Shown here: piece by piece, positions 6,637-64,000 of the stretch
Position numbering within the stretch: position 1 is the first letter of the stretch
Layout of the letters: each line of letters opens with the position of its first letter
Assembly: GCA_965208505.1 (NCBI GenBank)
Contig: OZ242339.1
Location: forward strand, 1,407,715-1,471,714
Origin: Acidimicrobiales bacterium
Lineage (GTDB): Bacteria > Actinomycetota > Acidimicrobiia > Acidimicrobiales > Bin134
Direction: 5' to 3'
DNA: 64,000 nucleotides
Program-made: the position numbers and the translations under genes
Notes under the pieces: model-generated
What the model saw: only the letters and a program-made list of their open reading frames with translations
Database searches by the model: none
Told to the model about the DNA's origin: nothing

Positions 6637-6641
6637 CCGAT

Positions 6642-17065: not shown

Positions 17066-17072
17066 GCCCGGC

Positions 17073-25388: not shown

Positions 25389-25519
25389 TATTGGTGGACG
25401 ACATGGTGGATTCCCGATGGACTCTCACCATAATCGCTTCTCTGCTGCGAAGCGCCGGAGCCGGACCCGTTCATCCGTTCGCATTGGCAAACACAGCCGG
25501 AAGGGCTAGGCGTGACTGA
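25385..25519 (+). pseudogene. Out-of-frame (-1) continuation of the PRTase-like domain of the RecQ fusion
   Basis: The frame starting at 25385 reads VILVDDMVDSRWTLTIIASLLRSAGAGPVHPFALANTAGRARRD-stop. This is the PRPP-binding loop expected right after ...AFSVTSEIP. It implies a 1-nt indel near 25370-25385. Confidence 0.6.
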
Positions 25520-45817: not shown

Positions 45818-47323
45818 TTACTCGGGGAGTGTGAGCTGGGATTCGGGCTGATTGCGCAGGCTCATGGCCTGTTCGCATTGGCTTTGGTGCCTGGCCGGTG
45901 TGTCGCGTGTGCAGTAGTGCTCCACGGTTTGTATGTCCAACACGGTGGCCCTCGCGTTGGCTTTGTTACAGGCTGCGTTTATGAGGGTTTCGTGGGGCTG
46001 TTTGGGCCTGCTATAGCCGTTGTCGTTGAAGTCGGGCGGGGCTATTGGGTCGACGATGACCCGGTCTCCGGTGGTCATCGGGCCGATGTCGCCGTTCCAC
46101 AGCGTCCAGGCGTCTTCGTCGAAGCGGACCTGGGGATAAGGCAGATCCAGCCTGACGGCGAGCGGTCGCCCGTCGGGGCCAGTGTGCTTCCACAAGTCTC
46201 CCCACAGCACCCCTTGCGACGTGGAGGACGCCGTCGGGTGCAGGTACGCGCACACCCGTTCGTAGTCGTTCGGCCCTGCGGGTTCTATCTTCAGGATCCC
46301 CACCAGCTTTGCCACCTCCAGCTCCATGTCGGGATGGTGCGGATGCATGCCGAAGAACGGCGGCGGTAGCAGATCTGCAACGAGGCGTGGATCACCGGGG
46401 CCCCGGCTGGCGGCGGAGGGCTCATCAGAAGGTGCGAGGCCTTGCTGTTCCAGCAGATCCCTCTGGTTGTGAGGTCTCGTGTCCTCCACGCAGATGCGCT
46501 GCCAACTTTGCTCTGCGGGTGGCCAGTCTGGCGGTTCTTGCGCGCAATACCACTTTACGGTCTCCAAACCGAGGACAACGCCGACTCCTTGGGCGGCGCA
46601 GATATCCCAGAAAAGATGCATCTCGTGGAACTCCTTGCCCCCCTCCGTGTAGCGACCCTCGCCTCCGCCAGTGAGGACCCGGTCTCCGTGGGAGATAGGG
46701 ATGTCGCTGCTCCACAGCGTCTGGGTGCTGTTGTCAAAGCGCACCTCGGGATAAGGCAACGACAACGCCAAGCGCTGTCGCCGATCGCCCGTCAACCAGT
46801 CGTACGAATTGGTAGACGAGTCGTACGAGTCGATGATGAAGTACACACAAGGTGGCTCAATGGACACAATTCCCTGCCATAGCTCCAACGGGAACTGCAT
46901 TTCGGGGTGGAATGCGTACATGCCCGCCAGCGGCGGCCTCGGCCAATCCCCGCCATTCCACCCGCTGCTGTCCTGACTCCCCGCCACGGTCCGCTCGGGA
47001 GGTCGATCCGTATCGCTCCGGTCAGTCTCGGCCGTCGCCGACACGGTGGCAACCGGCTGGTCCATACCTTCCTGCGGCTCCGCTCCACTTCGGTCAGGCT
47101 CGGGCGTCGCCGACACGGTTGCCGACGGTTGTTCCACTGCCGCCTGGTTCCCTGTCGAGCACCCCGCAAGGACCACAGCCAAGTAGACCAATGCAATTCC
47201 ATACCACACGGTCCGGCGCGGCGCGGCGGGCACTCTGACCCCGCGTGCCTCTTCTTGCGTTATGCACCCTTTACAGCGGTTTTGATTCCGCCGAGTCACT
47301 TGGGAGCTACCAGGAGCCGTCAC
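45818..47323 (-). CDS. Cys-rich lipoprotein with two internal ~150 aa repeats (unknown family)
   Basis: LAGC lipobox and a short tandem repeat QPSATVSATPEPDRS / QPVATVSATAETDRS. Two large repeats share GM(Y/H)..HP(E/D)M, LPYP(E/Q)VRFD....TLW..DI.....GDRV and TV(K/E).YC. G+C is lower than in the flanks. Confidence 0.7.
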   Translation of the reverse strand: MTAPGSSQVTRRNQNRCKGCITQEEARGVRVPAAPRRTVWYGIALVYLAVVLAGCSTGNQAAVEQPSATVSATPEPDRSGAEPQEGMDQPVATVSATAETDRSDTDRPPERTVAGSQDSSGWNGGDWPRPPLAGMYAFHPEMQFPLELWQGIVSIEPPCVYFIIDSYDSSTNSYDWLTGDRRQRLALSLPYPEVRFDNSTQTLWSSDIPISHGDRVLTGGGEGRYTEGGKEFHEMHLFWDICAAQGVGVVLGLETVKWYCAQEPPDWPPAEQSWQRICVEDTRPHNQRDLLEQQGLAPSDEPSAASRGPGDPRLVADLLPPPFFGMHPHHPDMELEVAKLVGILKIEPAGPNDYERVCAYLHPTASSTSQGVLWGDLWKHTGPDGRPLAVRLDLPYPQVRFDEDAWTLWNGDIGPMTTGDRVIVDPIAPPDFNDNGYSRPKQPHETLINAACNKANARATVLDIQTVEHYCTRDTPARHQSQCEQAMSLRNQPESQLTLPE

Positions 47324-48792
47324 GGGGCGCTCAGTGTGACCGGTTGGGTGAGGATCTCCACATCCAAGAAGGACTCAACCTCCCGGATACCAGAGAAGAT
47401 AACTATCTTGCCCCCCGAGTTGCAGTCATCCTTGTCAGTAGCGGACAACGTGATCCCGTAGGCCGTTCCGCCTCGATAAAACGGCCCTCCGCTGTCACCT
47501 CCGCAGCCTTTCAGTCTTTGGCCATCCACCCGAACGAACCCGGCATCACAGACAGTGTCTACGCCACTGGAGTTATAGCAAGTTAGTTCGCCACTCATTG
47601 GCTGATAACTTATGTTGGTGACTCTGCCGCAAGATATCCCGCTGCGCTCGCCGGTGTGGCACACGTAATCGTCTTGCATGTTGGCGCGGGCCTCTGTACG
47701 GATCACGTCGCATGAGGGGTTGGGGTAGCTGCGTGGGTCGCGGCACAAGTAGTCGTCGGCCACATAGTGGGATCCGCTGGTTGGAGTGGGGATGCGGTGG
47801 AACTGAGCGTCGGCGGTGGGGCTCACCCAGCCGTAGACGAACGGCAGCACTACACCCTTCATGCTGTACGTGTCAGTTTCAGTTGGACCGTCGTCACTGC
47901 AGTGTCCAGCAGTGACGACACCGTAGTCGTAGCCACCGCCGTTGCTTCGGCGGGCTGTGAACCCCGATGTGCAAATGAATATCCCAGATATCTCTTCTCC
48001 GCCTTGGAAGCTCTCCGCTGGGGCGATGCCGCGGCCGTCGGCGACGGTGAAGGGCACTTCGATGTGATCGTCGAGCAGTTCCGCGACCGCGGTCTTGCTT
48101 TGCTCGAAGGTCAGTTCAGAAACCGTGCCTAGCGGGCCGACATCGGGAGCGAGGCCGGGGTCTATGCCGACGCGAATAGCATTACCCGCCATATCGGTCT
48201 CCAAAAATGTGACCACTTCGGCCAGACCCGCGCCCACCCCGGCACCCTCGAGATCGCCCGGCGTGCCGGGCCCGGCCTGCCCAACAGCGCCGGTGCTACC
48301 CAGCGCGCCGCTACCGAAGGCAGGTCTTTGAGCCGCAAAAAGCTTTTCTGAAAGGCCGCGCTGCGCGGCCAGGAGCTCGGCGTAGCTGTGCTGGACGCCG
48401 GTGCGGATCTCCACATCGCTGTGAGCGTCGGCGACAGCAGCCGCAGCAGCGCCAGCCGGCTCGTCTCCGGTGAGCAGCACCCAGCCCCCGAAGTCGCCGC
48501 GGTGGTCTATGCCCCACCCCGCAACCCGTGCCGACTCAAGACCGCGGATTGTCGCCAGAACCTCCTGGATCGCCCCAATGCGTCCAAGGCGGCGGCTGGC
48601 CTCAGCCTGCGACACCGAGTACTCCAACGCATACGACTCCACAGCAACATCCACCGATTCCGCAGCCGGGCTTCGCTCTACCGCCTTAGACTGCTTGTCC
48701 TCAGCCGCATGCACCGTGCCCGCTATTGCTGCACCAAAGGCAAACAGCCCAATCGTACCGAGCAAAATAACTTGCCACTTCTTCCACTTCAT
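47320..48792 (-). CDS. Secreted S1-family serine protease (alpha-lytic protease / streptogrisin type) with pro-region
   Basis: Signal peptide MKWKKWQVILLGTIGLFAFGAAIAG, a long pro-region, VTAGHC (His) and GCGGDSGGPF (Ser). Its stop overlaps the lipoprotein start (GTGA). Confidence 0.85.
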   Translation of the reverse strand: MKWKKWQVILLGTIGLFAFGAAIAGTVHAAEDKQSKAVERSPAAESVDVAVESYALEYSVSQAEASRRLGRIGAIQEVLATIRGLESARVAGWGIDHRGDFGGWVLLTGDEPAGAAAAAVADAHSDVEIRTGVQHSYAELLAAQRGLSEKLFAAQRPAFGSGALGSTGAVGQAGPGTPGDLEGAGVGAGLAEVVTFLETDMAGNAIRVGIDPGLAPDVGPLGTVSELTFEQSKTAVAELLDDHIEVPFTVADGRGIAPAESFQGGEEISGIFICTSGFTARRSNGGGYDYGVVTAGHCSDDGPTETDTYSMKGVVLPFVYGWVSPTADAQFHRIPTPTSGSHYVADDYLCRDPRSYPNPSCDVIRTEARANMQDDYVCHTGERSGISCGRVTNISYQPMSGELTCYNSSGVDTVCDAGFVRVDGQRLKGCGGDSGGPFYRGGTAYGITLSATDKDDCNSGGKIVIFSGIREVESFLDVEILTQPVTLSAP

Positions 48793-49290: not shown

Positions 49291-49622
49291 CCGGGCTGGC
49301 GGACGATGGCGCCGGGCTCGATGCCGGTGTCGGGGCCGATGCCGTCGAGTTGAAAGGCCATGAGCATGTGGAACTCTTCGTCGTTCTGCACGGTGTGGTC
49401 GATGGAGGTGACTCGGGTGGAGATCGACTGACCGCCGACGTCTACCACTAGGGCGTCGCCTTCTTGTACGCGGCCCGCAGTCGCCCGGCCGATTACGAAG
49501 AAACCGTCGGCTGACATGGCCTCGGTGCGGACGACCTCGAACCGGAACAACTCCTTGCTGCGGCGCCAGCGCTTGAAGAATGTCCGCCAGTTGTGGGGCT
49601 GATCGTCCCACTCTCCCTCCAC
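49287..49622 (-). CDS. Small EF-Tu-domain-II-like beta-barrel protein
   Basis: This is the C-terminal 111 codons of track ORF 49287-50789; the rest of that ORF is antisense to the amidohydrolase. FRFEVVRTEAMSADGFFVIGRATAGRVQEGDALVV...TRVTSID...GIEPGAIV resembles translation-factor domain 2. Start proposed at GTG 49622. Confidence 0.5.
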   Translation of the reverse strand: MEGEWDDQPHNWRTFFKRWRRSKELFRFEVVRTEAMSADGFFVIGRATAGRVQEGDALVVDVGGQSISTRVTSIDHTVQNDEEFHMLMAFQLDGIGPDTGIEPGAIVRQPG

Positions 49623-49661
49623 GATGCCCGGCGAGTTGCTCACAGTTGGCAAACTAGTGGA

Positions 49662-50867
49662 ATGAGCGACCGGTACACCATCATCTCGGCCGACTGCCAC
49701 GCCGGGGCCAACCACGAGACTTACCGCGGGTTTTTGGAATCCAAGTACCAAGACGATTTCGACGCCTGGCGGGACAAGTACCGAAACCCATTCCGCGACC
49801 TCCAAGACGGCGGCCGGGTGCGCAACTGGGACAACGAGCGCCGATTGGGCGACCTGTACGCCGACGGCCAGGTGGGCGAGGTGGTGTTCCCCAACACCGT
49901 GCCCCCGTTCTTCCCCAGCTTCATCCTGTTCGCCCGCCCGCCCCAGGCCGATCAGCTCGAGCACCGACTGGCCGGCATCCGGGCCCACAACCGCTGGCTG
50001 GCCGACTGGTGCGCCCAGTATCCCGACCAGCGGGCCGGCATCGGCCAGACCTTCTTGAACGATGTGGACGAGGCCATCAAAGACGTGGAGTTCATCGCGG
50101 CCAACAACCTGCGCGGCGGCGTGCTGATCTCTGCCATCCCGCCCGACTGCAAGGATCTGGCCCCCCTGTACGACCCGGCTTACGACCCGTTCTGGGCCGC
50201 CTGTGAGGACCTCGGGGTGATCGTCAACAGCCACGGCGGTACCGGCGTCCCCAACTACGGCAAGTACTCGGTGTCGGATCTGCTGTTCATCACCGAAGTG
50301 AGCTTCTACTCCCACCGGCCCTTCTACCAGCTTTTGCTGTCGGGAGTGTTCGAACGGTTCCCCAAGCTCAAGTTCGTGATGACCGAGCAGGGCTGCGCCT
50401 GGCTGGTGGGCGCTCTGGCCCACATGGATGAGACCCTGGCCAAGATCCGCGACACCGGCCGCATGGGCGAGATGCGCTACGACGAGAGCCACATCCTGCC
50501 CCGCAGCGCCACCGAGTACTTCCAGCAGAACTGCTGGGTGGGCATAAGCCAGCCGGGCCACGACGACGCCGCCGCCCGTGAGGTGCTGGGGGTGAACAAG
50601 GTGATGTGGGGATCGGACTACCCCCACAACGAGGGCACCGGCCCTTACACCCGAGAGCACCTGCGCCAGGTGTTCTGCGGCACCGAACCTGGTGAGCTCC
50701 AGCAGATCCTGGCCGGCAACGCCGCCGACCTCTACGGCTTCAACCTCGACGCCCTGGCCCCGCTGGCCGCCCAGCACGGCCCGACCCACGACGAGATAGC
50801 CGTTCCCCTCAGCGAGCTTCCCGCCGAGCCCAACGAAGCGCTGCTCAAAAACGCCGTCGCGGCCTGA
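49662..50867 (+). CDS. Amidohydrolase-2 family metal hydrolase
   Basis: From ATG 49662: YTIISADCHAG near the N-terminus and WGSDYPHNEG near the C-terminus. Confidence 0.8.
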   Translation: MSDRYTIISADCHAGANHETYRGFLESKYQDDFDAWRDKYRNPFRDLQDGGRVRNWDNERRLGDLYADGQVGEVVFPNTVPPFFPSFILFARPPQADQLEHRLAGIRAHNRWLADWCAQYPDQRAGIGQTFLNDVDEAIKDVEFIAANNLRGGVLISAIPPDCKDLAPLYDPAYDPFWAACEDLGVIVNSHGGTGVPNYGKYSVSDLLFITEVSFYSHRPFYQLLLSGVFERFPKLKFVMTEQGCAWLVGALAHMDETLAKIRDTGRMGEMRYDESHILPRSATEYFQQNCWVGISQPGHDDAAAREVLGVNKVMWGSDYPHNEGTGPYTREHLRQVFCGTEPGELQQILAGNAADLYGFNLDALAPLAAQHGPTHDEIAVPLSELPAEPNEALLKNAVAA

Positions 50868-50936
50868 TCAGGCCAGCCATATTTCGAGCTACTCGCTGAA
50901 CCATCCATAGCTGCCCGCGCCCGGCAACGGGGCGAA

Positions 50937-50965
50937 GGAACCAATCAGCATCACCGGGCGTCGTT
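50937..50965 (+). promoter_or_regulatory. ECF-type promoter candidate (GGAAC ... CGTCGTT) directly upstream of the sigma factor gene
   Basis: GGAAC at 50937-50941 and CGTCGTT at 50959-50965. This ends 5 nt before the GTG at 50971, suggesting autoregulation and a leaderless or near-leaderless mRNA. Confidence 0.35.
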
Positions 50966-50970
50966 GCTGG

Positions 50971-51507
50971 GTGATGAAGACTATCCCTTGGATGGCTTCG
51001 GGAATTTCTGAGGGCGAGCGGCCGGTTCCCCGTGAACCAACGCCAACTGGAGAGGTTCTCAAGCTGGCCAGCTTCGACGACCTTTATCGGGCCGAATATG
51101 AGCCGATGGTCCGGCTGGCCCGGGGGCTGGTGGACGCCAGGGAGGCGGCCGAAGAAGTCGTTCAAGACGCCTTCGCCAAGGTATTCGACCGCTGGAGCCG
51201 CCTCGACCAGCCGGGGGCGTACCTGCGCACTTCGGTGGTGAACGGTTCCCGCAGCGAACTGCGCAAGCGCGAGGTGAGACGGCGTATCGGCCTTCGGCCG
51301 TTTATTCCCCCCCAACCCGACGACCAGGACTACCTGCTCGATGCCCTCAGCCAGCTCTCACCCACACAGAAAACCGTCCTTGTCTTGAAGTTCTACGCCG
51401 ACATGAACGAGAGAGAAATCGCCCAGGCCATGGGGGTACGGCCGGGCACGGTGAAAAGCGCCACATCCCGAGGATTGGCCGAGCTGCGAAAGGTGGTCGA
51501 CCAATGA
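50971..51507 (+). CDS. ECF (group 4) RNA polymerase sigma factor
   Basis: Region 2 (EEVVQDAFAKVFDRW...YLRTSVVNGSR) and region 4 (LSPTQKTVLVLKFYADMNEREIAQAMGVRPGTVKSATSRGLAELR). Confidence 0.85.
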   Translation: MMKTIPWMASGISEGERPVPREPTPTGEVLKLASFDDLYRAEYEPMVRLARGLVDAREAAEEVVQDAFAKVFDRWSRLDQPGAYLRTSVVNGSRSELRKREVRRRIGLRPFIPPQPDDQDYLLDALSQLSPTQKTVLVLKFYADMNEREIAQAMGVRPGTVKSATSRGLAELRKVVDQ

Positions 51508-53489
51508 GCGACGAGCGCCAAACCCCTGAAGATCTGACCGGAGCCGACGACCAGGCCCTCGGTGAGGCCCTGGGCAACGCCATCCGCGAGCGGGTCATTG
51601 CCCCGGCTGCCCGGCCGCCGGTGTCGTCCATCGCCGAGCGAGCCGCCGCCCAAGCCAAGGCCCGCCACACCCGCCAGGCAGTTGTGGGCATCGCCGCCTC
51701 GGTTGCCCTGGTGGCTGGCGGCATTGCCGCTTGGAGCGCACTTGAGGAGGATCAGCCCACCGAGGTCATCGTGGTCAATGATCCCACTTTCGCACCGGAT
51801 CCAGAGGTAACAGCACAGCCGACCGCGGCCCCAACTGCTCCTTCGGTGGAGGAGCCCCAAGAAACACTCCCAGAAACACCCCAAGCCAGCGCCGAAGTCA
51901 CCACCCAGCCGATCACGCCCAAAAGCGTTTCGACCGGCCCGGAGCTCGGATGGGTCCAGTTCGACCCCACCACCGTTTTCGGCACCGACGTGATCGACGC
52001 TCACAGCATCGCCTCGGTGGGCGACGGCAGAGTGCTGGCTCAGGTCTACGGCCGCGACGGCGACCGGGTTCTGGTCACCGACAACGGCACTGACTGGACC
52101 GTGATCTCCATGCCGCCAGACTTTGCCCCTGAGCGCTTCAACTTCGCTGGCGAGCGCTGGGTAGTCACCGGATGGGATGTCTCCACCTTTGAAGACAACA
52201 TCAGCGCTTTCTTCTCCGACGATCAGGGTGCCACTTGGACAAATTTGGCCCTCGATATTGGTGGCAACGCCGACGAGACCGTTTCGGTGGCTGATGTTCT
52301 GGTGTCCGGCCAGAACATGGTGATTGCCGCGAAAGCCCGTTTCCATGTCGATATCGCCTCGGTGATCGTTAACCGGGGCCTGGTGCCCGACAAGGAATCG
52401 ATCAAGGGGTGGATGGGCGTCGAAGGCGACACGGTGAGCTTCACCCGGGATGAGTCGTCGGACCCGGAGTCGTTCGAGCTGACCGCCGAAGAGGAGGACT
52501 TTCTCTACGGGGGCGACCGCCGATTCGTTCGCCTATTCCATAGCGACGGCGGCGCTGCCGAGCAAGTGGCCGAGTATTCCGCTTGGGACGTTGGTGGCTA
52601 CGGCGCCGTCGACGGGTTCCATCTTGCGTTGATCGCCACCGAGGGAGAGCTGCTGCTTACCTCTGCTGACGGTCGCCAATGGAGCCAAGCGCCCTTGACG
52701 GCCGCCGACGGTGTGCCTGTCGGTCGCTTCTACTCCTACTACGGAACCACCGAGGGGACGGTCTGGACATCGGGCCAGACAAGCAGCCAATACCGGGCCG
52801 AGCGCTTTGAGGGCGCGTACTCCCCCGCACTGGTGGCCGAGCTCCCCAGCGGCATCGCCACGGTAGATCGTCTGTCGGTGGGGCCCGCGGGCATCGCCAT
52901 GGCGGCCTTGCAAGGAAGCACTCCTGACCCCAACCTCATACCTGTTTTCCAAGTCGCCAAAGACGGATACGAGCTTCGATACAACGACCCTGTGGGTGGC
53001 GTCAGCCTGTGGGACTTGTCTGAAGACATAGCCGTCTACGTGCTCGACGCCGAGAACGCTCAAAGCAACATGCTGCCCGAAGGCGTTCGGGAGGTGGAAG
53101 GAGGCGATGAGGTTCCCGATTTGTTGGTCTTCGAGGATCCCGACACCGGCGAGCACCTGGTGTCGTTCACCATGGAAGAGCTGGAGCCCTGGATCAGTAG
53201 CGACGGGTTTGTGGGTACTGCCGGTATCAGCACTGAGCAGAGCGAGCAGTGGGTCGGTTGGTCAGCCGACGGCAGCACCTGGGATTGGAAAACCCTGTCC
53301 GAAGCCTATGGCTTGACCGGCCTGACCGATCTCGAGAAGGGGTTCACCAACATCGAGCTGGCCGTAGGCAGCAACTTCGTGATTGCCCGAGTCCAGCCCT
53401 ATTCCGCCGACCCCTCCGACACCCCTGGCGATGACAGCATCATGCTCTCCGGCCATGCGCCACTTTGGTTCATCGCCACCGTAGAATGA
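51504..53489 (+). CDS. Single-pass membrane protein: putative anti-sigma N-terminus plus large extracytoplasmic Asp-box (BNR-like) repeat domain
   Basis: ATGA overlap with the sigma gene, TM helix AVVGIAASVALVAGGIAAW, Asp-box-like repeats SDDQGATW, TDNGTDW, SADGRQW and SADGSTW. Confidence 0.6.
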   Translation: MSDERQTPEDLTGADDQALGEALGNAIRERVIAPAARPPVSSIAERAAAQAKARHTRQAVVGIAASVALVAGGIAAWSALEEDQPTEVIVVNDPTFAPDPEVTAQPTAAPTAPSVEEPQETLPETPQASAEVTTQPITPKSVSTGPELGWVQFDPTTVFGTDVIDAHSIASVGDGRVLAQVYGRDGDRVLVTDNGTDWTVISMPPDFAPERFNFAGERWVVTGWDVSTFEDNISAFFSDDQGATWTNLALDIGGNADETVSVADVLVSGQNMVIAAKARFHVDIASVIVNRGLVPDKESIKGWMGVEGDTVSFTRDESSDPESFELTAEEEDFLYGGDRRFVRLFHSDGGAAEQVAEYSAWDVGGYGAVDGFHLALIATEGELLLTSADGRQWSQAPLTAADGVPVGRFYSYYGTTEGTVWTSGQTSSQYRAERFEGAYSPALVAELPSGIATVDRLSVGPAGIAMAALQGSTPDPNLIPVFQVAKDGYELRYNDPVGGVSLWDLSEDIAVYVLDAENAQSNMLPEGVREVEGGDEVPDLLVFEDPDTGEHLVSFTMEELEPWISSDGFVGTAGISTEQSEQWVGWSADGSTWDWKTLSEAYGLTGLTDLEKGFTNIELAVGSNFVIARVQPYSADPSDTPGDDSIMLSGHAPLWFIATVE

Positions 53490-53627: not shown

Positions 53628-55322
53628 GTGAACATGACTACTACCCGGAACAGCCTGCGTGCAGCCGCTGGCCTTGTTGCGCTGGTTGCCTTGGCGATTG
53701 GCGGGATCGCGGGATGCAGCTCTTCAGGAAACTCCGAAGTGATCGTGTCCAGCGATTCCCCGGAGTCTGTGGACTCTCCGACTCCGCAGGTCGCGACACC
53801 CGAGGGAGTTGCTCAGCCACCAGAGCCCACCGTGGCGCCGGTAGTCACACCCACTGAGGCTCCCGATGTCTCTGGGCTGGTTTGGGCTGAAGTGGATCTC
53901 GCCGACGCTCTAGGCGCAGATGAGCACTCGACCATCCGCCTCGAGTCGGTAGGCGACGGGCGAGTACTGGCCCTGAGCTTCGTCGACCGAGGCATAGACA
54001 AGATATTGGTCACTGACGACAGCACGGAATGGGCACCAATCCCAGTTCCCGCTGGTTTCCTGCCTTGGGAAGTCGACATCATCGGCGACCGCTGGTTGAT
54101 TCAGGGATGGGACTCAACCGTCGAAGCTCCGGGTACTCAGATTCTGTTCTCCGACGACCAAGGAGCGAGTTGGACTGAGCTGGTGGTCGACTTGGGCTCT
54201 TTCGAAGGCACGGCTTGGATAACCGACGCCATTGTGGCTGGGGAACGCATCGTGGTGATGGCCCAGAGCGACGCCCGGCAGCCTGAAATTGACCAAGCAC
54301 TTGGTGATGAAATGGCCTACGAGCCGAGCGAGGAGCGTGTCCACCTCTTCTTGAGCAACGGTGGGCCACCCGAGTTGGTGGCCGAATTTCCGGGTTGGGC
54401 TTCTTCCGGTAGCTATGGAGCGTCTGATGGTTTCCACCTGATCTTGTACGGCCCTGAGGGTGACCAATTTTTGTATTCCCCAGACGGCCGTCAATGGACT
54501 ACCACATCGGTTGAGGTCGAGATAACCGATAGCGCCCAGAACGAACTCTGGACCACAGAAGAGACCGACGGAAAGTTCAAAGTCGAGCGCTTCGATGGCG
54601 TCTACGGCTGGGACCAGGTGCTGACCCTGCCTGACGGCATCGGGTGGATGCCCTCTCTTGCCGTCGGACCTGCCGGAGTTGCCGCGGTGGGCGGGCCGGC
54701 ATCGCCTTACGACGAATCTGACGGGGGCTTCACTCTGCCCGACATCAACATCGAAAAGGACGGTTACGAACTCCGGTACAACCAGCCTGAAGGCGGCATC
54801 ACGCTGTGGGATCTAGAAAATGACTCGGCGGTGCATATTTTCGACTCCGAGACCCTCCAAAGCGAGGGGGAGTTCCAGGAAGTGTCTGAAGTCGAGGATT
54901 CTCTCGGTTCAAATGTGGTATTCCACGACCCTGAAACCGGAGCCGAACTCGTGACCTTCCGCGGTGAAGAGTTGGCTGCTGCGGTCATGGAAGCGGAATC
55001 AGCCGCCAACAGCTATTACGACCCCAATGAGTTCTTGGTCGGCTGGTCGTCAGACGGCACCGACTGGGAATGGCAGACCCTCCAAGAAGCCTTCGGCCTT
55101 CCCGAGCACAGCGAAGGGGACAGCTCTTTCACCGACGTCCAAGTGGCCGTGGGTCCCGATTTCGTGCTCGCCCAGGTTCAGACCTTCGAATTCCCCGAAG
55201 CCGAGTTTGACGAAGACGTCGAGGTCGGCGTCGGCGACGGCCCATCCGATTCAACCTCTACCTACTTCACCGCCCCCATCTTCCCCTCTCCCATCCGCTG
55301 GTTCATTGCCAGGGTCGACTGA
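53628..55322 (+). CDS. Lipoprotein paralog of the 51504-53489 extracytoplasmic Asp-box domain
   Basis: Lipobox IAGC. Shared blocks with the upstream gene: SVGDGRVLA, ILVTDD, W(L/V)(I/V).GWD, FSDDQGASW, KDGYELRYN.P.GG(I/V).LWDL and a C-terminal WFIA.V. Confidence 0.7.
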   Translation: MNMTTTRNSLRAAAGLVALVALAIGGIAGCSSSGNSEVIVSSDSPESVDSPTPQVATPEGVAQPPEPTVAPVVTPTEAPDVSGLVWAEVDLADALGADEHSTIRLESVGDGRVLALSFVDRGIDKILVTDDSTEWAPIPVPAGFLPWEVDIIGDRWLIQGWDSTVEAPGTQILFSDDQGASWTELVVDLGSFEGTAWITDAIVAGERIVVMAQSDARQPEIDQALGDEMAYEPSEERVHLFLSNGGPPELVAEFPGWASSGSYGASDGFHLILYGPEGDQFLYSPDGRQWTTTSVEVEITDSAQNELWTTEETDGKFKVERFDGVYGWDQVLTLPDGIGWMPSLAVGPAGVAAVGGPASPYDESDGGFTLPDINIEKDGYELRYNQPEGGITLWDLENDSAVHIFDSETLQSEGEFQEVSEVEDSLGSNVVFHDPETGAELVTFRGEELAAAVMEAESAANSYYDPNEFLVGWSSDGTDWEWQTLQEAFGLPEHSEGDSSFTDVQVAVGPDFVLAQVQTFEFPEAEFDEDVEVGVGDGPSDSTSTYFTAPIFPSPIRWFIARVD

Positions 55323-55357: not shown

Positions 55358-56518
55358 ATGATCGTCGATGTGGATACCCACTGGGAGATCACGGGGGACT
55401 CGGCGGGGGTTGACCCCATGAAGCCGTGGGCCGATCAGATTCCCGACAACCGGACGCATCTGGCCAACGCCATCGCCGGCGATTTGCTCCAGGTGCTGCC
55501 TGCGGAGCGTCGGCCCAACCCCGTGGAGCTGTTGCCCAAGCTGTTCGAGCGGGCCAAGGAATCGGGCGGTCCGGTTGTGTTGCACCCCCGCCACGACTCC
55601 ACCGCGGCCGAGAGGGTGGCGTGGATGGACTCGGTGGGCATCGACCACTGCCTGGTGAACCCCGGCGGGTACTGGCAGAAGCTCGACTACCTGCGGCCCG
55701 ACGACCGTGTGGTTGCCGCCCAGCGGTGCAACGACTTCCTGACCGAGCAGCTTTGGGATCAGCAGCACCGTCTCCATTCAGTGGCCACCGTCGACTTCTC
55801 CGACATCGAGGCCGCAGTAGTCGAACTGGAGCGCTGCCGGGAACGGGGCGCTCGGGCGTTCTTCCTCTACACCTTGCGGGGGGCACCCGCCGGAGGGCCT
55901 CCCGGCCACCCCGATTGGGACCAGGTGTGGGCTGCGGCCACTTCGCTGGGCATGGTGGCGGTGATCCATGTGGGCAACACCGAGGCCGACTTCTCGAAGT
56001 GGGCCGACATCGGCTGGGACCTGCCCGACGGGGCCGGTGTGGGCGGGCTGATCCGGCTGGCCAACACCCAGCGGCTGCACGCGGCCCAGAACCTTATTGC
56101 CAGCATGCTGTTCGGCGGGGTGTTCCACCGCTTCCCCAACCTCACTGTGCTGGTCGAGGAGATGCGGGCCGGATGGCTTCCCTGGTATGTGGCCACGCTG
56201 TCCCGACAGTGCCTTTCTTCGCCCTCTTTGGGCGACTGGCCATGGCCGGTCAGCGGCGAGGAGATGCTGCACCGCAATCTGCGGCTCACTCCCCTGCCTG
56301 GCTTCGGCGACACCGATGCCCTGGACGTACTCGCCGAGTTGCCCGACATGGTGGTGTTCTCCTCCGACTACCCCCACCAAGAGGGCAACGCCGACCCCAT
56401 CGAGCTGTACCGCCCGACTCTCGACGAGGTAGACGACGAAGTGAGAACCGCGTTCATGGGAGCGACTGCTGCCGACTGCTTCACCCGCATCGGCGATCCC
56501 CTGCCTGCGGTGGCCTAG
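55358..56518 (+). CDS. Amidohydrolase-2 family metal hydrolase
   Basis: MIVDVDTHWE start and SSDYPHQEGN near the C-terminus. Confidence 0.8.
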   Translation: MIVDVDTHWEITGDSAGVDPMKPWADQIPDNRTHLANAIAGDLLQVLPAERRPNPVELLPKLFERAKESGGPVVLHPRHDSTAAERVAWMDSVGIDHCLVNPGGYWQKLDYLRPDDRVVAAQRCNDFLTEQLWDQQHRLHSVATVDFSDIEAAVVELERCRERGARAFFLYTLRGAPAGGPPGHPDWDQVWAAATSLGMVAVIHVGNTEADFSKWADIGWDLPDGAGVGGLIRLANTQRLHAAQNLIASMLFGGVFHRFPNLTVLVEEMRAGWLPWYVATLSRQCLSSPSLGDWPWPVSGEEMLHRNLRLTPLPGFGDTDALDVLAELPDMVVFSSDYPHQEGNADPIELYRPTLDEVDDEVRTAFMGATAADCFTRIGDPLPAVA

Positions 56519-56539: not shown

Positions 56540-57697
56540 TCAGCGCCCCACGGGCTGCATGTAGAACGTGATGCCGCTGGGAGCCTCTTGCTCGGTGAGG
56601 GCGTCGCGAGCCGCAGCCAAAGTCTTGCCCGCCTCAGTCTCCTCGTAGAACCACGCCTCCGCTTGTCGGGCACCCGGAGGCGGGTCGCCGGCCAACTCAA
56701 GGGCAGCCTCTTGGTAGTACGCCCGGATGTCGTGGGCGATGGCGATGGTGTCCAGCCTCGGGCCGTACACCTCTTTCCAGTGCTCACCGGCGGCCACCCG
56801 CTCCAAGTCGGCCAGCGCGCCCACCACACCGTCGGCGTCGATGGCCCGGCCCACTTCGGTGGCCCCCCGACGGTCCACCGCCCGGTCGTAGGCGGCCCGC
56901 AGTCCCTGGGCCTCGTCGATAGACGGAGCGATGTCGGGGTCGTAGCGGGGCGGCAGCGCGCAGGCCAGTGGCGTCTCGACGGCCTCCACCACCTCGGGAT
57001 AGTCCACCAGCACAGGGCCCGACGGTGCGTTGAGCAAGTCGAATGCCGCGCTCAGCACACCGTGTTGGAATTGGGCGTTGTCGGGCATGCCCAGCGGACG
57101 ACCCAGGGGGAACTCGCAGTACAGCACCCGGGGGACGTTCATCCGCTCAGCCACCGGTCGCATCGATGCCAGCACCACCGTGGCGATGCCAGCTTCTTCC
57201 AGTACGTGGCCCAGCACACACACGGTGCGCGTGCACAGCGGTCAAACGGGAGTCAAGATGGCCACATCCACCCCATCGGCCCGCAGCTCGGCGGCCGCGG
57301 CGGGGCCGGTGTCGAGGCGCACCTCCGACACCGTGTCGGGCTGGTTGCCGGCAAACGCCACATGCCGGGGCGCCACGGCCCCGATGGTGCCGGCAGCGGC
57401 CAGTTCCTCCAGGCGGTCGATGGGATACACCACGTTGTGGTCGGACACGTACGCCGCCCGGTCGAAGTTGGAGCTCCAATGGCCCAAGATCAGTTCCCGG
57501 TCGGCCCGGTCGAGCATCCGATAGCTCACGTCCCCCCGGCCCTCGAATCGGTCTTGGTCGGCCCGGTGAAGACCTGCACTGGTCACGATGGCTACCGTGG
57601 CCTCGGCCAAGGGCGGAGGCGACGCCCACGGCGTGGACTCGAATTCCGGAACCGGCAGGTTGGCCATCATGTCGCGCATCACTTGGTCACTGGACAT
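56540..57697 (-). CDS. GrdB/PrdB-family (glycine/sarcosine/betaine/D-proline reductase B-like) protein with in-frame TGA, candidate selenoprotein
   Basis: Track ORFs 57242-57697 and 56540-57223 are in the same frame, separated only by the TGA at 57242-57244 plus six sense codons. The read-through gives ...VDVAILTPV-U-PLCTRTVCVLGHVLEEAGIATVVL..., with a UxxC motif. Confidence 0.7.
57214..57234 (-). promoter_or_regulatory. SECIS-like hairpin downstream of the in-frame UGA
   Basis: mRNA: UGA CCGCUGU GCACGCGC-ACCGU-GUGUGUGC. This is an 8 bp stem (two G-U pairs) starting 7 nt after the UGA, with G and U in the apical loop. Confidence 0.45.
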
Positions 57698-57725
57698 GCT
57701 CTAACTCTCCCATAGCGTCGCTTGT

Positions 57726-59198
57726 TCACCCGGTGCCGGGCACTGACAATTGTGTCCGTAGTTCGGCGTAGCGGGCCCGGGCCTCCTGGCCGTTGGCACC
57801 GGACGGTGGCTCCACCACCACTCCCCTGCCTAGAGGCCAGTCAGCGGCAACTTCGGCAGGGTGCCGGCCCGCTGCTATCGCTGCGGCCTGCACTGCTGCG
57901 CCCAGTGCCACCGTCTCGTCGTCATCAGGCACAGTTACCGGCTCGCCGTGCAGCGCCGCAGCCCTATCCCGGTAGGCGAGAGAGCGGGCGCCGCCGCCGA
58001 TGAGGTGGAGGCGGCCGCTGGCATCCACACCTGCGCTCCGCAGGGCATCGAGCCCGTCGAATAGCCCACATAGCACACCATCGTGGGCGGCCAGGGCCAC
58101 CTGCTCGCGAGTCGTGTCGTTGCGCAGCCCGGCAAAGAGACCGGTGGCGGCGGGCAGATCGGGGGTGCGCTCCCCGTCGAAGTAGGGCACTAGCACCGGG
58201 GCGTTGGGGCCACCGGCAGCGGACAAGGCGAGCTCTGCCAGGCCCGCAGGATCTACCCCCAGCCAGCGGGCCACAGTGTCGGTGACCCGGGTGGCGTTGA
58301 GGGTACACACCAGGGGCAGAAACGCTCCGGTGGCGTCGGCGAACCCGGCTACAGCGCCGGTTGGGTCGCTGGTGGGGGTGCGAGAGACGGAATAGGCCGT
58401 GCCGGAAGTGCCCAGAGAGATCACCGAGTCGCCCGGCTTCAGCCCGAGTCCGAGGGCAGCCCCCATGTTGTCGCCGGTTCCGGGGCCGATCAGCACGGCG
58501 TCGCCTAATCCCAGTGCGGAGGCAGCATCTTGGGTGATCTGCCCGGCGGCCTCGTCGGGCCCGAGCACTTGAGGCAGCCGGGACAGCCAGCCGGTGGGGT
58601 CGTCGACCACCAACCCAAGCAAGTCAGCCGCCATCTCATTGGCGGCGGGGTCGAACCAGCCGGTGCCCGAAGCGTCGCCCCGGTCGGTGACATGGGCCCC
58701 GGACAGCCGCCAGGTGATCCAGTCGTGGGGAAGCATGATCCGGGCGATGCGGTCGGCAATCTCAGGCTCGTGCTCCAACACCCAGGCCAGCTTGGCGATG
58801 GTGAACGACGCCAGCGGCACCGAACCGCAGCGCTCGGCCCATCCCTGTGGGCTCAAGCGGGCTGCCAGATCGCTGGCTTGGGGCGCAGATGTGGTGTCGT
58901 TCCACAGCTTGGCCGGGCGCAGCACCGCACCGTCATCGCCCACCAGCACCAGGCCGTGCTGCTGGCCGGCCACGCTGATGGCTGCCACGCAGGCCCGGTC
59001 GGCCTCGGTGAACTGGGTGAAGCAGGCCGCTAGCGCGTCCCACCATGTCACCGGGTCCTGCTCACTCACCGGCGGATCCCAGCAGGTGTGGGCATGGGGA
59101 CCACTGGCCCGGTCCACCAGCCGCCCCGAGCCGCGCTCTCGCAACTCCACTTTGGTCGACTGGGTGGACGAGTCCACCCCCGCAACCAACTCCATCAA
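57726..59198 (-). CDS. xylB: Xylulokinase (FGGY family)
   Basis: [12 protein letters not shown] start and FGGY motifs; 490 aa, overlapping the xylA stop by 4 nt. Confidence 0.85.
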
Positions 59199-60532
59199 CT
59201 CGGCGTGGTCCAGATAATGCGGTTGACCTCGTTCTCGAGACGCTCTTGGCGTCCCGACACCGGCTTAGGACTGAGCCCGTCGGCCACTGCTTGATCGGCC
59301 AGCGAGGCCAAATCCACGTCACCCTTCATGATGTCGGCTCCGAGACCCGACTCCCAAAGGGCATAGCGCTGTTCCCGGGCCTGCTCGATGGTGCCGTCGG
59401 CCAGCATTGCCTCGGCCACCAGCAGGGAGCGGGCCAGCGTGTCGATGCCGCCGACGTGGCCCCAGAACAGATCGTCTCGGGCCATGCTCTGGCGCCGGAG
59501 CTTGGTGTCGAAGTTGAACCCGCCGGTGGAGAACCCCCCGCCCCGCACGATCTCATAGAGGGCCAGCGACAGCTCGTCCACCGAGTTGGGGAACTGGTCG
59601 GTGTCCCATCCGTTTTGAGGATCGCCCCGGTTGGCGTCCACGCTGCCGAAGATGCCGTTGTCCACCGCGTAGGCCACCTCGTGATGGAAGGAGTGGCCCG
59701 ACAGGGTGGCGTGGTTGACCTCGATGTTCACCTTGAATTCGTCGACCAGGTCGTAGCGCTCCAAGAACCCGTGAACCGAGGCGCAGTCGTAGTCGTACTG
59801 GTGTTTGGTGGGCTCCTGGGGCTTGGGCTCCAACAGCAGCGTGCCCGAAAAGCCGATTTTGTGCTTGTGCTCGGCCACCAGGGTCAAAAAGCGGGCGAGC
59901 TGGTCGGCCTCTTGGCGCAGCCGGGTGTTGAGCAGTGTCTCGTAGCCCTCTCGCCCGCCCCACAACACGTAGTTGGCCCCGTCAAGGCGGTGGGTGGCCT
60001 CAAGCATGTGGCGAACCTGGGCGGCAGCGTGGGCGAACACCTCCGGGTCAGGGTTGGTAGCGGCCCCGGCGGCATAGCGGGGGTGGCTGAACAGGTTGGC
60101 CGTGCCCCACAAGAGCTGCACCCCGGTGGCCTCCATCTTGGTCGCGGCCCGCTCAACCATGGCGTCGAGGTTGGCCCGGCTCTCAGCCAGGCTGTCGCCC
60201 TCGGGGGCCATGTCCACATCATGGAAGCAGTAGAACGGCGTGCCCAGCTTCTCGAAGAATTCGAAGGCGGCGTCTTGTTTGGCCCGAGCCGCGGCCATCG
60301 GGTCTTGGCCGGGCTCCAGCCAGGGCCGGTCGAAGGTGCCGACGCCGAAGATGTCGCTGCCCGGCCAGTTGAAGCTGTGCCAGTAGCACACGGCAATTCT
60401 GAGATGGTCCTCCATCCGCCGCCCCAGCACCTGCCGTTCGGGGTTGTACACCCGGTAGGCCAACTGGCCGAGGCCAGCCCGATTCCCGGCATGGGCCACC
60501 GGTTCGGGAACGGTGTCAAAGAAGTCAGTCAT
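59195..60532 (-). CDS. xylA: Xylose isomerase
   Basis: [30 protein letters not shown] and [10 protein letters not shown] motifs; 445 aa. Confidence 0.95.
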
Positions 60533-60638: not shown

Positions 60639-62351
60639 ATGAGAGGCGGGTCCATGTCTTTTCCATCCGATCTTGAGATCGCCCGCGGGGCGAATCTCCG
60701 ACCGCTGACCGAAATCGCCGAAGAGGCCGGCATCCCAACCGAGATGCTGGAGCCCTACGGGGCAGGGGCGGCCAAGATCAGCCTGGACGCCATCGAGGCG
60801 CTAGCCGACCGACCCAGAGCCCGCTATGTGGTGGTAACGGCCATCACCCCCACCCCGCTGGGCGAGGGCAAGACCACAACCACCGTGGGTCTGGGCCAGG
60901 GCTTCGGCCATATCGGCAAGCGCGCCACCATTGCCATCCGCCAACCCTCGCTTGGTCCGACGTTCGGCATCAAGGGCGGCGCGGCCGGCGGCGGCTACAG
61001 CCAGGTGGTGCCCATGGAGCTGTTCAACCTCCACCTCACCGGCGACATGCATGCGGTGACCGCCGCCCACAACATGTGCTCGGCCATGCTCGACGCCCAC
61101 ATCTATCACGGCAACGAGTCGGGCCTAGATCTGCACAACATCACCTGGCGCCGGGTAGTGGACATCAACGACCGAGCCCTTCGCAACATCGTCGTGGGTC
61201 TGGGCGGGCGGCTTGACGGCGTCCCCCGGGAAAGCGGCTTCGACATCACCGCCGCTTCCGAGGTGATGGCCACCCTGGCCCTGGCCACCTCGCTGTCCGA
61301 CCTGCGGGCCCGGCTGGGCCGGATCGTTGTGGGCTACACCAAAGACGGCGACCCGGTGACCGCCGAAGACCTGAAGGCCGCCGGGGCCATGGCCGTGCTG
61401 TTGAAGGACGCCCTCAAGCCCAACTTGATGCAGACCCTGGAGGGCGGCCCCGCCCTGGTACACACCGGGCCGTTCGGCAACATCGCCACCGGCAACTCCT
61501 CCATCGTGGCCGACCGCATCGCCATCCGCACCGGCGACTTTTTGGTCACCGAGGCCGGATTCGGCGCCGACATGGGCGCCGAGCGGTTCTTCAACATCAA
61601 GTGCCGCTACTCGGGCATCGACCCCGACGCCGCGGTGATGGTGGCCACTGTGCGTGGGCTCAAGGCCCACTCCGGCAATCACCGAATCGTGGCCGGACGG
61701 CCCCTGCCCGAGGCACTGCTGGCCGAGAACCCCGACGAAGTACACGCCGGGGGCGACAACCTCCGCAAGCAGCTGTCGAACATGAAGGCCCACGGGGTTA
61801 CCCCGGTGGTGGCCATCAACGCCTTCCCCGGCGACCACGACGCCGATCTGGCCGCCATCGCCGAGATCGCCGACGAGTACGGCGCCCGCTGCGCGGTGAC
61901 CACCCACTTCTCCGACGGCGGCGCGGGGGCAGCCACCCTCGCCGAGGCAGTGGCCGAAGCCTGCGAGGAGCCCAGCTCGTTCAAGGTGCTGTACGAGGAC
62001 GACTTGTCGCTCAAAAACAAGATCGCCGCGGTGGCCACCACCGTGTACGGCGCCGACGACGTGGAGTACTCGGCCACCGCCAACCGCCAGCTCAACACCT
62101 ACGAGTCGGCCGGCTTCGGCCACCTCCCGGTGTGCATCGCCAAAACCCACCTGTCCATCTCGTCTGACCCCTCCCTCAAGGGCGCCCCCACCGGCTGGAC
62201 CCTGCCGGTGCGAGAGGTGCGGGCCTCTGTGGGCGCCGGTTTCGTCTACCCCATCTGCGGCGACATGCGCACCATGCCCGGCCTCGGCCGCCAACCCGCC
62301 GCCATGGGCATCGACCTAGACGAAAACGGCGAGATCGTCGGCCTGAGCTGA
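60639..62351 (+). CDS. fhs: Formate--tetrahydrofolate ligase
   Basis: SDLEIA start, ITPTPLGEGKTTTTVGL P-loop, EGGPALVHTGPFGNIA. The ATG at 60654 is an alternative start. Confidence 0.95.
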   Translation: MRGGSMSFPSDLEIARGANLRPLTEIAEEAGIPTEMLEPYGAGAAKISLDAIEALADRPRARYVVVTAITPTPLGEGKTTTTVGLGQGFGHIGKRATIAIRQPSLGPTFGIKGGAAGGGYSQVVPMELFNLHLTGDMHAVTAAHNMCSAMLDAHIYHGNESGLDLHNITWRRVVDINDRALRNIVVGLGGRLDGVPRESGFDITAASEVMATLALATSLSDLRARLGRIVVGYTKDGDPVTAEDLKAAGAMAVLLKDALKPNLMQTLEGGPALVHTGPFGNIATGNSSIVADRIAIRTGDFLVTEAGFGADMGAERFFNIKCRYSGIDPDAAVMVATVRGLKAHSGNHRIVAGRPLPEALLAENPDEVHAGGDNLRKQLSNMKAHGVTPVVAINAFPGDHDADLAAIAEIADEYGARCAVTTHFSDGGAGAATLAEAVAEACEEPSSFKVLYEDDLSLKNKIAAVATTVYGADDVEYSATANRQLNTYESAGFGHLPVCIAKTHLSISSDPSLKGAPTGWTLPVREVRASVGAGFVYPICGDMRTMPGLGRQPAAMGIDLDENGEIVGLS

Positions 62352-62448: not shown

Positions 62449-64000
62449 GTGTACATGGCGAAGCGGGAACGTTTGACCGTGCCGATGGTGCGGGACAACG
62501 GAAGCCTGCGAGAAGCGACTTGGAATGAAGCACTGTCGCGGGCCTCTACCGGGTTCAACCAGGTGCTCGAACACCATGGGCCGCAGGCGTTCGGGATGTT
62601 CAGCTGCTCTAAGGCCACCAACGAGATGAACTACATCGCCCAGAAGTTCATCCGCACGGTGGTGGGCTCCAACAACATCGACTCCTGCAACCGAACTTGA
62701 CACGCTCCTTCGGTCGTCGGTCTGGCGACAGTGTTCGGAGCGGGAGGGGGCACTTGCTCCTACCAGGAGATCGAGGAAACCGACGTGATCCTGTTGTGGG
62801 GGTCAAATGCCCGCGAGGCCCATCCCATCTTCTTCCACCACCTTCTCAAGGGCCTCGACAACGGCGCCCGAATGTACTGCGTCGACCCCCGCTACACCTC
62901 CTCGGCCCGCTTCGCCGACGTGTGGGTGGGCATCGACGTGGGCACCGACATCGCCCTGGCCAACGGCATCGGCCGTGAGATCATCCATGCCGGGCTGGCC
63001 AACCAAGACTTCATCGACCACTCCACCCAGGGCTTTGAGGCCTACGCCGCCTCGGTGGAGCCGTTCACTCCCGACGCGGTGGCCGCCATTTGCGGCATTC
63101 CCCCCGAGGCCGTGGTGGAGATGGCCCACGCCTACGCCACTGCCGACAGTGCCCAGATCCTGTGGACCCTGGGCATCACCGAGCACCACAACGCGGTCGA
63201 CAACGTGCTGTCGTTGTGCAACCTGGCCCTGCTTGCCGGCCATGTGGGGCGGTGGGGCTCGGGCCTGGTGCCGCTGCGGGGGCAGAACAACGTGCAGGGC
63301 GGCGGCGACATGGGGGCCATCCCCAACAAGTTCCCCGGTTTCGCCAGCGTGGACGACCCTGCTCACCGCGCCCGATTCGAGGCCGCCTACGGCCGGGAGC
63401 TCAACCCGGTCCCCGGTTGGCATCTCACGCTCATGTTCGAGGCCATGGAGCAGGGCGACCTGAAGGCGCTGTACGTGATCGGCGAGAATCCGGCCGACTC
63501 CGAGGCCGACGTGCTCCACGCCCGGGCCCAGCTCGAGAGCCTCGACATCCTGGTGGTGCAGGACATCTTGATGACCCGCACCGCGGAGATGGCCGACGTG
63601 GTGCTACCCGCCTCGGTGGCCTGGGCCGAGAGCAACGGCACTGTAACCTCAAGCGAGCGCCGGGTGCAGCGGGTGCGCCCGGCGGTGTCGCCCCCCGGAC
63701 AGGCCCGCCACGACATCGACATCTTGTGCGACATGGCCGAGGCGATGGGCGCCGAACTCGGCCCCCGCGACCCAGAGGCCGCGTGGGACGAGCTGCGCTC
63801 TTTGTCGGCAATGCATGGAGGTATGGCCTGGGAGCGCCTAGAGGCCGCAGGCGGTCTGCAATGGCCGTGTCCCGACGAGGATCACCCGGGCAGCCCCTTG
63901 CTCCACGGCTGGCTGTGGGCTGATGACTTGGAGGGCCACGACCCGGCCCCCTTCTCGGTGCTGGAGCATGAGGGACCGACCGAGGAGCTGAGCGAGGAGT
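62449..64000 (+). CDS. fdhA: Formate dehydrogenase alpha subunit (molybdopterin oxidoreductase) with in-frame TGA = selenocysteine; continues past the right window edge
   Basis: The track shows only 62449-62700. The same frame stays open from 62701 to 64000 and reads ...NNIDSCNRT-U-HAPSVVGLATVFGAGGGT...LLWGSNAREAHPI...GITEHHN...PLRGQNNVQGGGDMG...GENPADSE.... This matches the SRVUHGPSV-type active site of FdhF-like enzymes. Confidence 0.85.
62703..62742 (+). promoter_or_regulatory. fdhF-type SECIS hairpin immediately after the UGA
   Basis: Outer stem CGCUCC (62703-62708) / GGAGCG (62737-62742). Inner stem GUCGUC (62713-62718) / GGCGAC (62724-62729), with apical loop GGUCU (62719-62723). The E. 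coli fdhF SECIS also has a GGUC-containing apical loop. Confidence 0.7.

Follow-up and report, generated by a model that had tools for sequence, protein, structure and literature searches.

The window analysed in this work is a stretch of 64,000 nt from contig OZ242339.1 of an Acidimicrobiales bacterium (assembly GCA_965208505.1). Its minus strand contains a gene related to those coding for PrdB, of D-proline reductase, and GrdB, which is interrupted by an in-frame TGA. We propose that this gene codes for one PrdB-like selenoprotein of 385 residues, whose UGA codon 152 (U152) would be read as selenocysteine (Sec) by means of a selenocysteine insertion sequence (SECIS), and whose chemistry would be that of a reductase without partner. 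We give this reading a probability of about 0.85. The features which concern this gene are the following:

56540..57697, minus strand: predicted PrdB-like selenoprotein gene, 385 codons, with ATG at 57697..57695 and terminator TGA at 56542..56540.
57705..57711, minus strand: putative ribosome-binding site GGGAGAG, read from the sequence, 7 nt upstream of the ATG.
57035..57616, minus strand: PrdB/GrdB-homologous alpha/beta core, residues 28–221 (TIGR04483, PF07355).
57242..57244, minus strand: predicted in-frame Sec UGA, codon 152, first residue of the UxxC motif.
57233..57235, minus strand: codon for Cys155, the partner Cys of UxxC, invariant in three alignments, one of which includes bona fide PrdB.
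57214..57230, minus strand: predicted SECIS upper stem-loop GCGCAC / CGUGU / GUGUGC, positions 15–31 from the U of UGA.
56543..56995, minus strand: family-specific helical C-terminal extension, residues 235–385, with no counterpart in PrdB.

The minus-strand frame from 57697 to 56540 contains 385 residues and a single internal stop, the TGA at 57244..57242, in the context ILTPV-U-PLCTRTVC. The initial annotation had described two open reading frames (ORFs) split by this TGA, which together give a protein of 385 aa with U at about residue 152, and both the translation and the base composition of third codon positions (GC3) confirm it. These ORFs, 57697..57242 and 57223..56540 in a mechanical ORF list, share one frame. 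GC3 is 0.84 upstream of the internal TGA and 0.83 downstream, the coding signature of a genome with about 65% GC. The gene itself ends with TGA, so that this codon normally works as a stop here and depends on its context to be decoded as Sec.

Homologues have been collected by tblastn, taking one genome per species, which gives 80 loci. The homologous codon is TGA in 78 of them and TGT in two, a ratio of Sec to Cys forms which is biased, as the set was picked by similarity to the Sec form. The matches cross the stop, from residue 1 to about 385, with 46–65% identity. Their hosts are mainly Acidimicrobiia, the others are Dehalococcoidia, Gammaproteobacteria (Pseudomonadales, Porticoccaceae), Binatia, deltaproteobacterial metagenome-assembled genomes, Holophagae, Hydrogenedentota, and Entotheonella. 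The gene, including its TGA, is identical in contigs from three sequencing runs of two samples. This agreement, together with the TGA in 78 of the 80 species-level homologues, indicates that the internal TGA is not a sequencing error. Weaker matches to this stretch of the gene are found in sponge-metagenome runs.

Relatives in the databases fall into two classes. Many are "hypothetical proteins" of 221–232 residues which begin just past the TGA: They are Sec forms cut by the gene callers. The second class corresponds to full-length proteins of 380–420 residues, with about 50% identity to the window protein. In an alignment of 21 full-length homologues, the U152 column is occupied by Cys in 18 cases, Ser in one, and Gly in two, and C155 is invariant. 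Cys forms are also found in cultured hosts, such as Parafrankia. A contig from Solirubrobacterales (L081) contains two paralogous Cys forms, at 8001-9194 and 15952-17112, which are 7 kb apart. Genes for a P450, a short-chain dehydrogenase, and an NMT1/SsuA-type ABC transporter are located between them.

The TGA is followed by a hairpin, which the initial annotation considered SECIS-like and drew as an 8 bp stem (GCACGCGC/GUGUGUGC) with an ACCGU loop, 7 nt past the TGA. The presence of a downstream hairpin is supported, its register is not. The 8 bp form exists in the window sequence, but it is not conserved: In an ungapped alignment of 79 Sec forms, it is 71% paired and has zero covariation across the 77 distinct homologues. 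The conserved structure is a 6 bp helix shifted by 4 nt, which starts 11 nt past the UGA (positions 15–20 and 26–31, with the loop at 21–25). It is paired in 99.8% of the cells of the alignment. Compensatory double changes occur in three of its six pairs, where C-G is replaced by U-A in 31 sequences, A-U by G-C in three, and G-C by U-A in one. Its covariation score was not matched by any of 500 shuffles, and both pairing and covariation fall when the 3' partners are slid by 1–3 columns. RNAalifold finds the same helix, with two additional lower pairs. The apical loop is CGUGU in the window and CGUGA in the family. We conclude that the 6 bp register, not the 8 bp one, is the conserved form of the predicted SECIS. 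The window sequence alone favours the 8 bp register, which is near its single-sequence minimum-energy fold: Only the comparative data decide for the 6 bp helix. Single-sequence folding of the region is no better than that of shuffled sequences (z = 1.1 and 0.3), and no SECIS family reached its gathering score when the window was scanned with Rfam at gathering thresholds.

The effect of this helix is also seen in codon usage. In Sec forms, the Arg codon CGC is always accompanied by a G at the start of the codon found four positions downstream (GUG or GCG), and CGU by an A (ACG or AUG), with no exception. Along the 3' arm, Thr, Val, Ser, and Gly each appear with a single codon. Through this coupling of the Arg codon with the downstream codon, RNA structure ties a synonymous site to an amino acid choice. 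Only two to five of the six helix pairs can form in the Cys forms available as a control. The segment 57204-57253, which contains the TGA and the SECIS, is the sole match, with about 86% identity, in contigs of other genomes from the same sponge samples, and no other DNA segment of the gene is as well conserved between species as this core.

The hairpin is similar to bacterial SECIS of the fdhF type. Both are located directly past the UGA within the ORF, both have a 6 bp upper stem, a 5 nt apical loop, and G-U at loop positions 2–3, and the stem begins 15–16 nt from the U of UGA. The sequence of the window hairpin, however, is specific of its family. In the E. coli fdhF SECIS the loop has G-U at positions 2–3, and the spacing from UGA to the apical loop in bacterial SECIS is 16–37 nt. 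As far as sequence comparison can tell, the SECIS-dependent decoding of UGA152 is strongly supported.

The protein core is homologous to PrdB and GrdB, in agreement with the initial annotation, which had assigned it to this family on account of its UxxC motif. The best NCBIfam match is TIGR04483 (PrdB), with 139.8 bits and E 9.3e-41, where residues 28–221 align with positions 25–217 of a profile of 238. The equivalog cut-off of TIGR04483, 300 bits, is not reached by the window protein. The Pfam family GRDB (PF07355) passes its threshold of 22 bits, with 39 bits and E 7.6e-10. This match covers only positions 202–345 of the 347 in the profile and ends opposite residue 149, just before the Sec. 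TIGR01918 (selenoprotein B subfamily) gives 53.1 bits over profile positions 200–404, below its cut-off of 65.45.

Genes annotated as prdB by PGAP were found by tblastn of plasmid records. In plasmid pTG1 of Terrisporobacter glycolicus, prdB is part of the canonical prdC-prdA-prdB operon. PrdB from Terrisporobacter and from Peptoclostridium acidaminophilum both have an in-frame TGA, in the context ..LLTAG-U-GTCHRS... A joint alignment places the Sec of these two proteins, U152 of the window protein, and the Cys of Cys forms in one column, and C155 is invariant. The initial annotation had suggested checking whether U aligns with the catalytic Sec or Cys, and it does: On this evidence, U152 corresponds by homology to the Sec used in catalysis by PrdB. 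The window protein and PrdB have about 25 other positions in common, including H73, D79, D86, N88, E167, R190, and Q211.

The differences are also clear. PrdB (TIGR04483; Clostridium sticklandii, Terrisporobacter, Peptoclostridium) shares with the window protein a homologous core and a Sec in the same UxxC column, with 34–35% identity to the annotated PrdB proteins. On the other hand, PrdB has about 240 residues and ends soon after the core, while the window protein has 385, with some 150 extra C-terminal residues, and prdB is encoded together with prdA and prdC, while no PrdA is found near the window gene. GrdB, GrdF, and GrdH, the selenoproteins B of glycine, sarcosine, and betaine reductases (PF07355, TIGR01918), match the window protein through their C-terminal half. 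The N-terminal half of GrdB, about 200 residues, is absent from the window protein, and no grdA, grdE, grdC, or grdD is found near its gene.

Two plasmids contain other genes of this superfamily. The 302 aa Cys-type "selenoprotein B family protein" of plasmid p546-2 (5869-6777), from the alphaproteobacterium Roseomonas haemaphysalidis, is encoded tail-to-tail with a gene for a SelO protein adenylyltransferase, and corresponds to another orphan branch. Plasmid EAL2_808p of Peptoclostridium acidaminophilum contains an annotated Sec prdB gene (5971-6684), with three matching places in the record. The PLSDB gene table is incomplete, and shows no prdA within 6 kb of this gene.

The C-terminal extension does not belong to any Pfam family when it is searched alone. 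A phmmer search of the full library with the extension gives 189 representative proteins and, aside from a few spurious cases, the matches are at the C-terminal end of PrdB-like proteins: They are either fragments of about 227 residues, which correspond to Sec forms, or Cys forms of 380–420 residues. Just three odd long matches were found as candidates for other architectures, and they seem to be spurious or of low complexity. We have also considered the extension as a fused piece of PrdA, which was rejected, as a profile comparison of the family with PrdA is negative. Residues such as S75, E262, and W349 are invariant within the family.

A structure was predicted with AlphaFold2, using a 22-sequence alignment and X in place of U. 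The model has a mean local confidence (pLDDT) of 93.1 and a predicted template modelling score (pTM) of 0.92, and consists of an alpha/beta core followed by a helical C-terminal domain. U152 is located in the loop between strand 145–149 and helix 155–168, and C155 on the first turn of this helix, as is usual for redox-active CxxC motifs. A sequence search of the PDB gave no match. The best Foldseek hit of the model against the PDB has E 0.016 and a TM score of about 0.2, so that neither a solved relative nor a functional lead was obtained.

The genes which surround the PrdB-like gene are the following:

55358-56518, plus strand: Amidohydro_2 gene, convergent with the PrdB-like gene.
57726-59198, minus strand: FGGY kinase gene, directly upstream of the PrdB-like gene.
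59195-60532, minus strand: xylA2-like isomerase gene, upstream of the FGGY kinase gene and on the same strand as the PrdB-like gene.
60639-62351: formate-tetrahydrofolate ligase gene, upstream and divergent, which adjoins the Sec formate dehydrogenase gene.
62698..62700, plus strand: predicted Sec UGA of the formate dehydrogenase alpha subunit (gene at 62455-64000), in the context SCNRT-UGA-HAPSVVG.

The neighbours named in the initial annotation, an amidohydrolase and xylB, correspond to the convergent Amidohydro_2 gene and to the upstream FGGY-family kinase gene, whose end is separated by 28 nt from the ATG of the PrdB-like gene. The xylA2-like, FGGY kinase, and PrdB-like genes are tightly packed, and their order is kept in two relatives (L089 and L090), where the C-terminal fragments of the PrdB-like protein have 92% and 76% identity to the window protein. 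This order may be a lineage-specific operon or mere inherited synteny. Outside this lineage the context varies, as the biggest cluster of immediate neighbours has four members in about 70 loci. Neighbours on the same strand within 60 nt are found in 10 of 71 cases upstream and in 8 of 69 downstream.

We have surveyed the 80 loci over 8 kb, naming gene families by inspection of the sequences rather than by Pfam. Several families are recurrent: short-chain dehydrogenases (22 loci), AMP-ligases (16), CaiB-type CoA-transferases (10), luciferase-like oxidoreductases (9), TetR regulators (8), and sulfatases (6). We have rejected them as partners: They are large paralogous families, and none is adjacent in more than four of about 70 loci. 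Sulfatases, TauD, SsuA-like, and DszC-like genes near some Cys forms suggested a link with organosulfur scavenging, which is too inconsistent to be retained.

A tblastn search with PrdA over the window and 85 related loci, with a total of 1.27 Mb, gave no match, and Pfam scans of about 50 window ORFs did not detect GrdA, GrdE, PrdA, thioredoxin, thioredoxin reductase, or sel genes. This agrees with the initial annotation, which had found no grd or prd partners adjacent to the gene. A tRNA for Sec was not found in the window by ARAGORN either.

The window does contain the Sec-type formate dehydrogenase gene mentioned in the initial annotation, with its TGA at 62698-62700 and a downstream hairpin. 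This predicted SECIS has a 6 bp stem and a GGUCU loop, at positions 16–32 from the UGA, with G-U at loop positions 2–3. In relatives, gene callers split this gene into products of 81 aa and about 540 aa. Such a gene supports Sec decoding in this organism.

Other features of the window were also noted. The region 23442-26540 (plus strand) has a GC content of 0.58, compared with about 0.65 elsewhere, and contains genes for a RecQ-like DEAD/DEAH helicase and for DprA (DNA_processg_A). Three long ORFs do not belong to any Pfam family: 51504-53489 (plus strand, 661 aa), 53628-55322 (plus strand, 564 aa), and 45818-47374 (minus strand, about 500 aa). The first two come after a gene for a sigma factor of the extracytoplasmic function type (50911-51507), and genes of similar size are found in the same position in L089. 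Amidohydro_2 (PF04909) has several paralogues in the window, at 32120-33304 (minus strand), 49515-50867 (plus strand), and 55358-56518 (plus strand). The corresponding region of L090 has four Amidohydro_2 genes.

This family was already known: In the supplement of Zhang, Fomenko and Gladyshev (2005; PMC1088965), AACY01584242 and AACY01802489 appear as "Proline reductase PrdB", with the in-frame TGA marked. AACY01584242 (..LLTPVuPLCTRTVGTLASV..) is 51% identical to the window protein over 170 residues (E 2e-54), and AACY01802489 (..LLTGTuPMCPRTVCTLAHV..) is also 51% identical, over 194 residues (E 2e-64). These Sargasso matches span both the core and the C-terminal extension, with the same UxxC. 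The window gene is, judging from these comparisons, a real selenoprotein gene and a further member of a predicted family known since 2005, so the novelty implied by the initial annotation was overestimated. In the Sargasso Sea data, with 42 Sec forms and one Cys form, it is the third most abundant selenoprotein family (PMC1088965), and the Global Ocean Sampling survey found 235 Sec and 110 Cys members (PMC2398784). The 42 Sargasso "PrdB" sequences are not all of one kind: The same supplement contains a distinct type (..LLVPSuGLCNQTVGLVQ.., ..YPYGHALGEP..) which seems to end sooner after the core.

The marine "Proline reductase PrdB" family and the window protein are thus the same family. Published work only counted and named it, and the window copy differs in coming from a sponge-associated Acidimicrobiia genome. 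Recent reviews still describe it just as "D-proline reductase, TIGR04483, UxxC". Our literature searches found no paper which treats this clade separately or tests its function, or which deals with the absence of PrdA, the additional C-terminal domain, or the covariation of the SECIS. On PrdB-like selenoproteins, and on selenoproteins of sponge Acidimicrobiia, these searches gave no papers. What we add is the SECIS register with its covariation, the positional match to the Sec of PrdB, the failed tests of membership in PrdB, the family-specific C-terminal domain, and the absence of any conserved partner gene.

Several explanations have to be compared with a single selenoprotein. If the TGA were a true terminator, the gene would be broken or split, with a downstream part which is no longer functional or which is translated independently, starting at the GTG at 57223. 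This is how gene callers treat it, annotating products of 151 and 227 aa, and the 76 nt region does not fold better than shuffled sequences (z = 1.1). Nevertheless, 78 species-level homologues from different phyla have the same TGA, and both halves are conserved in them with 48–65% identity, Cys forms are single continuous proteins, the hairpin covaries, and the coding GC3 runs on in the same frame, all of which makes a split gene extremely improbable. We consider equally improbable that the UGA is recoded to something other than Sec, by a suppressor tRNA or by insertion of Cys or Trp. Such recoding would agree with the lack of a tRNA for Sec and of sel genes in the window, but TGA is a normal stop in this same gene and in its neighbours, the SECIS-type hairpin has the geometry found at the Sec site of the formate dehydrogenase, and the pattern of replacement of Sec by Cys is the classical one.

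The nature of the enzyme is a different matter. It might be the PrdB subunit of a classical D-proline reductase, with the pyruvoyl-bearing PrdA encoded elsewhere in the genome. Many homologues are annotated in this way by the Joint Genome Institute, TIGR04483 is the best NCBIfam match (E 9e-41), the UxxC is in the same position as in PrdB, and the literature uses the name "Proline reductase PrdB" (PMC1088965, PMC2398784). Against this, the score of 139.8 bits is far under the equivalog cut-off of 300, identity is just 34–35%, and the extension of 150 residues is foreign to PrdB. No PrdA is found in the window or in the 85 loci, while true prdB belongs to a prdC-prdA-prdB operon. Furthermore, the hosts belong mainly to aerobic marine, soil, and sponge-associated lineages, which we take not to be Stickland fermenters. 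A classical PrdB is therefore a very unlikely explanation, D-proline is unlikely to be the substrate in the classical PrdA-dependent way, and the name D-proline reductase is doubtful for this family. A serious alternative is a plain thiol-disulfide oxidoreductase: a general thiol or selenol enzyme, which would serve in antioxidant defence or reduce disulfides instead of acting as a reductase specific for a substrate. It would account for a stand-alone gene with variable neighbours and for the UxxC, which the model places where a helix begins, a location shared by many redox proteins, and the family is grouped with the thiol-dependent redox selenoproteins by Zhang et al. (PMC1088965, Table 3). 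Yet about 20 further residues invariant in both the family and bona fide PrdB, together with the conserved domain of 150 residues, suggest a substrate pocket rather than a simple redox carrier. The fold is different from that of thioredoxin, and Foldseek gives no match. We consider this alternative improbable, although clearly less so than a classical PrdB.

Some observations weigh against a partnerless selenoenzyme and should be kept in mind. No selA, selB, selC, or selD was found in the 64 kb window with Rfam, ARAGORN, or Pfam. The search for GrdA, GrdE, and thioredoxin was done with Pfam and covered the window only, and a partner similar to PrdA, GrdE, or GrdA may be encoded elsewhere in the genome. 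The position after the xylA2-like and FGGY kinase genes could mean a lineage-specific role in sugar metabolism. As regards the SECIS, the control with Cys forms consists of six sequences only, and the invariance of G-U in the loop is confounded: G-U also begins a conserved Val codon, so it is not independent evidence. Finally, because the fold search gave no solved relative, the proposed chemistry is deduced from homology to PrdB and GrdB.

PrdB acts on D-proline held on the pyruvoyl group of PrdA (PMC13188914). In this source, which cites Kabisch et al. 1999, the Sec of PrdB and GrdB is described as attacking a substrate bound as an imine to the pyruvoyl of PrdA or GrdE. The selenoprotein we propose would work in a different way. 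It belongs to a widespread clade related to PrdB and GrdB, with its own helical C-terminal domain of about 150 residues and usually without a conserved partner gene. The SECIS hairpin inside the coding sequence would help to decode UGA152 as selenocysteine. The selenolate of U152 would be the nucleophile or redox centre, and Cys155 would resolve the intermediate, forming a selenenyl-sulfide. This Se-S bond would then be reduced again by a dithiol system of general use in the cell, for example one of the thioredoxin type, and the whole process would be independent of PrdA. Because no pyruvoyl partner is found nearby and the protein has an extra domain of its own, a self-contained reductase with a different substrate appears likelier than a classical D-proline reductase. 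A more detailed version is suggested tentatively, as we think it somewhat less probable than an even chance: In a self-contained selenoenzyme, independent of PrdA, the C-terminal domain may take the substrate-holding role of PrdA or GrdE, and the enzyme may carry out a reductive bond cleavage in aerobic marine, soil, and sponge-associated bacteria.

Whatever its substrate, the gene has consequences for annotation. Gene callers split both the PrdB-like and the formate dehydrogenase genes into "hypothetical protein" fragments, and "D-proline reductase PrdB" is the label given to full-length Cys homologues. The metabolic reconstruction of sponge symbionts and of marine Actinobacteria is misled by both labels, because proline reduction of the Stickland type would be deduced in the absence of the catalytic PrdA. 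The SECIS hairpin also shows clearly how the structure of an RNA can constrain the sequence of a protein, with the choice of an Arg codon tied to the choice of Val or Thr four codons on. Our data sharpen the question of the function of this orphan family, the locus alone does not make this function more testable. In any case, few selenoprotein families are more abundant in the surface ocean than this one (PMC1088965, PMC2398784). If it does correspond to a self-contained selenoenzyme, then one of the most abundant selenoprotein families of the ocean would be a mis-named orphan enzyme with a new chemistry.

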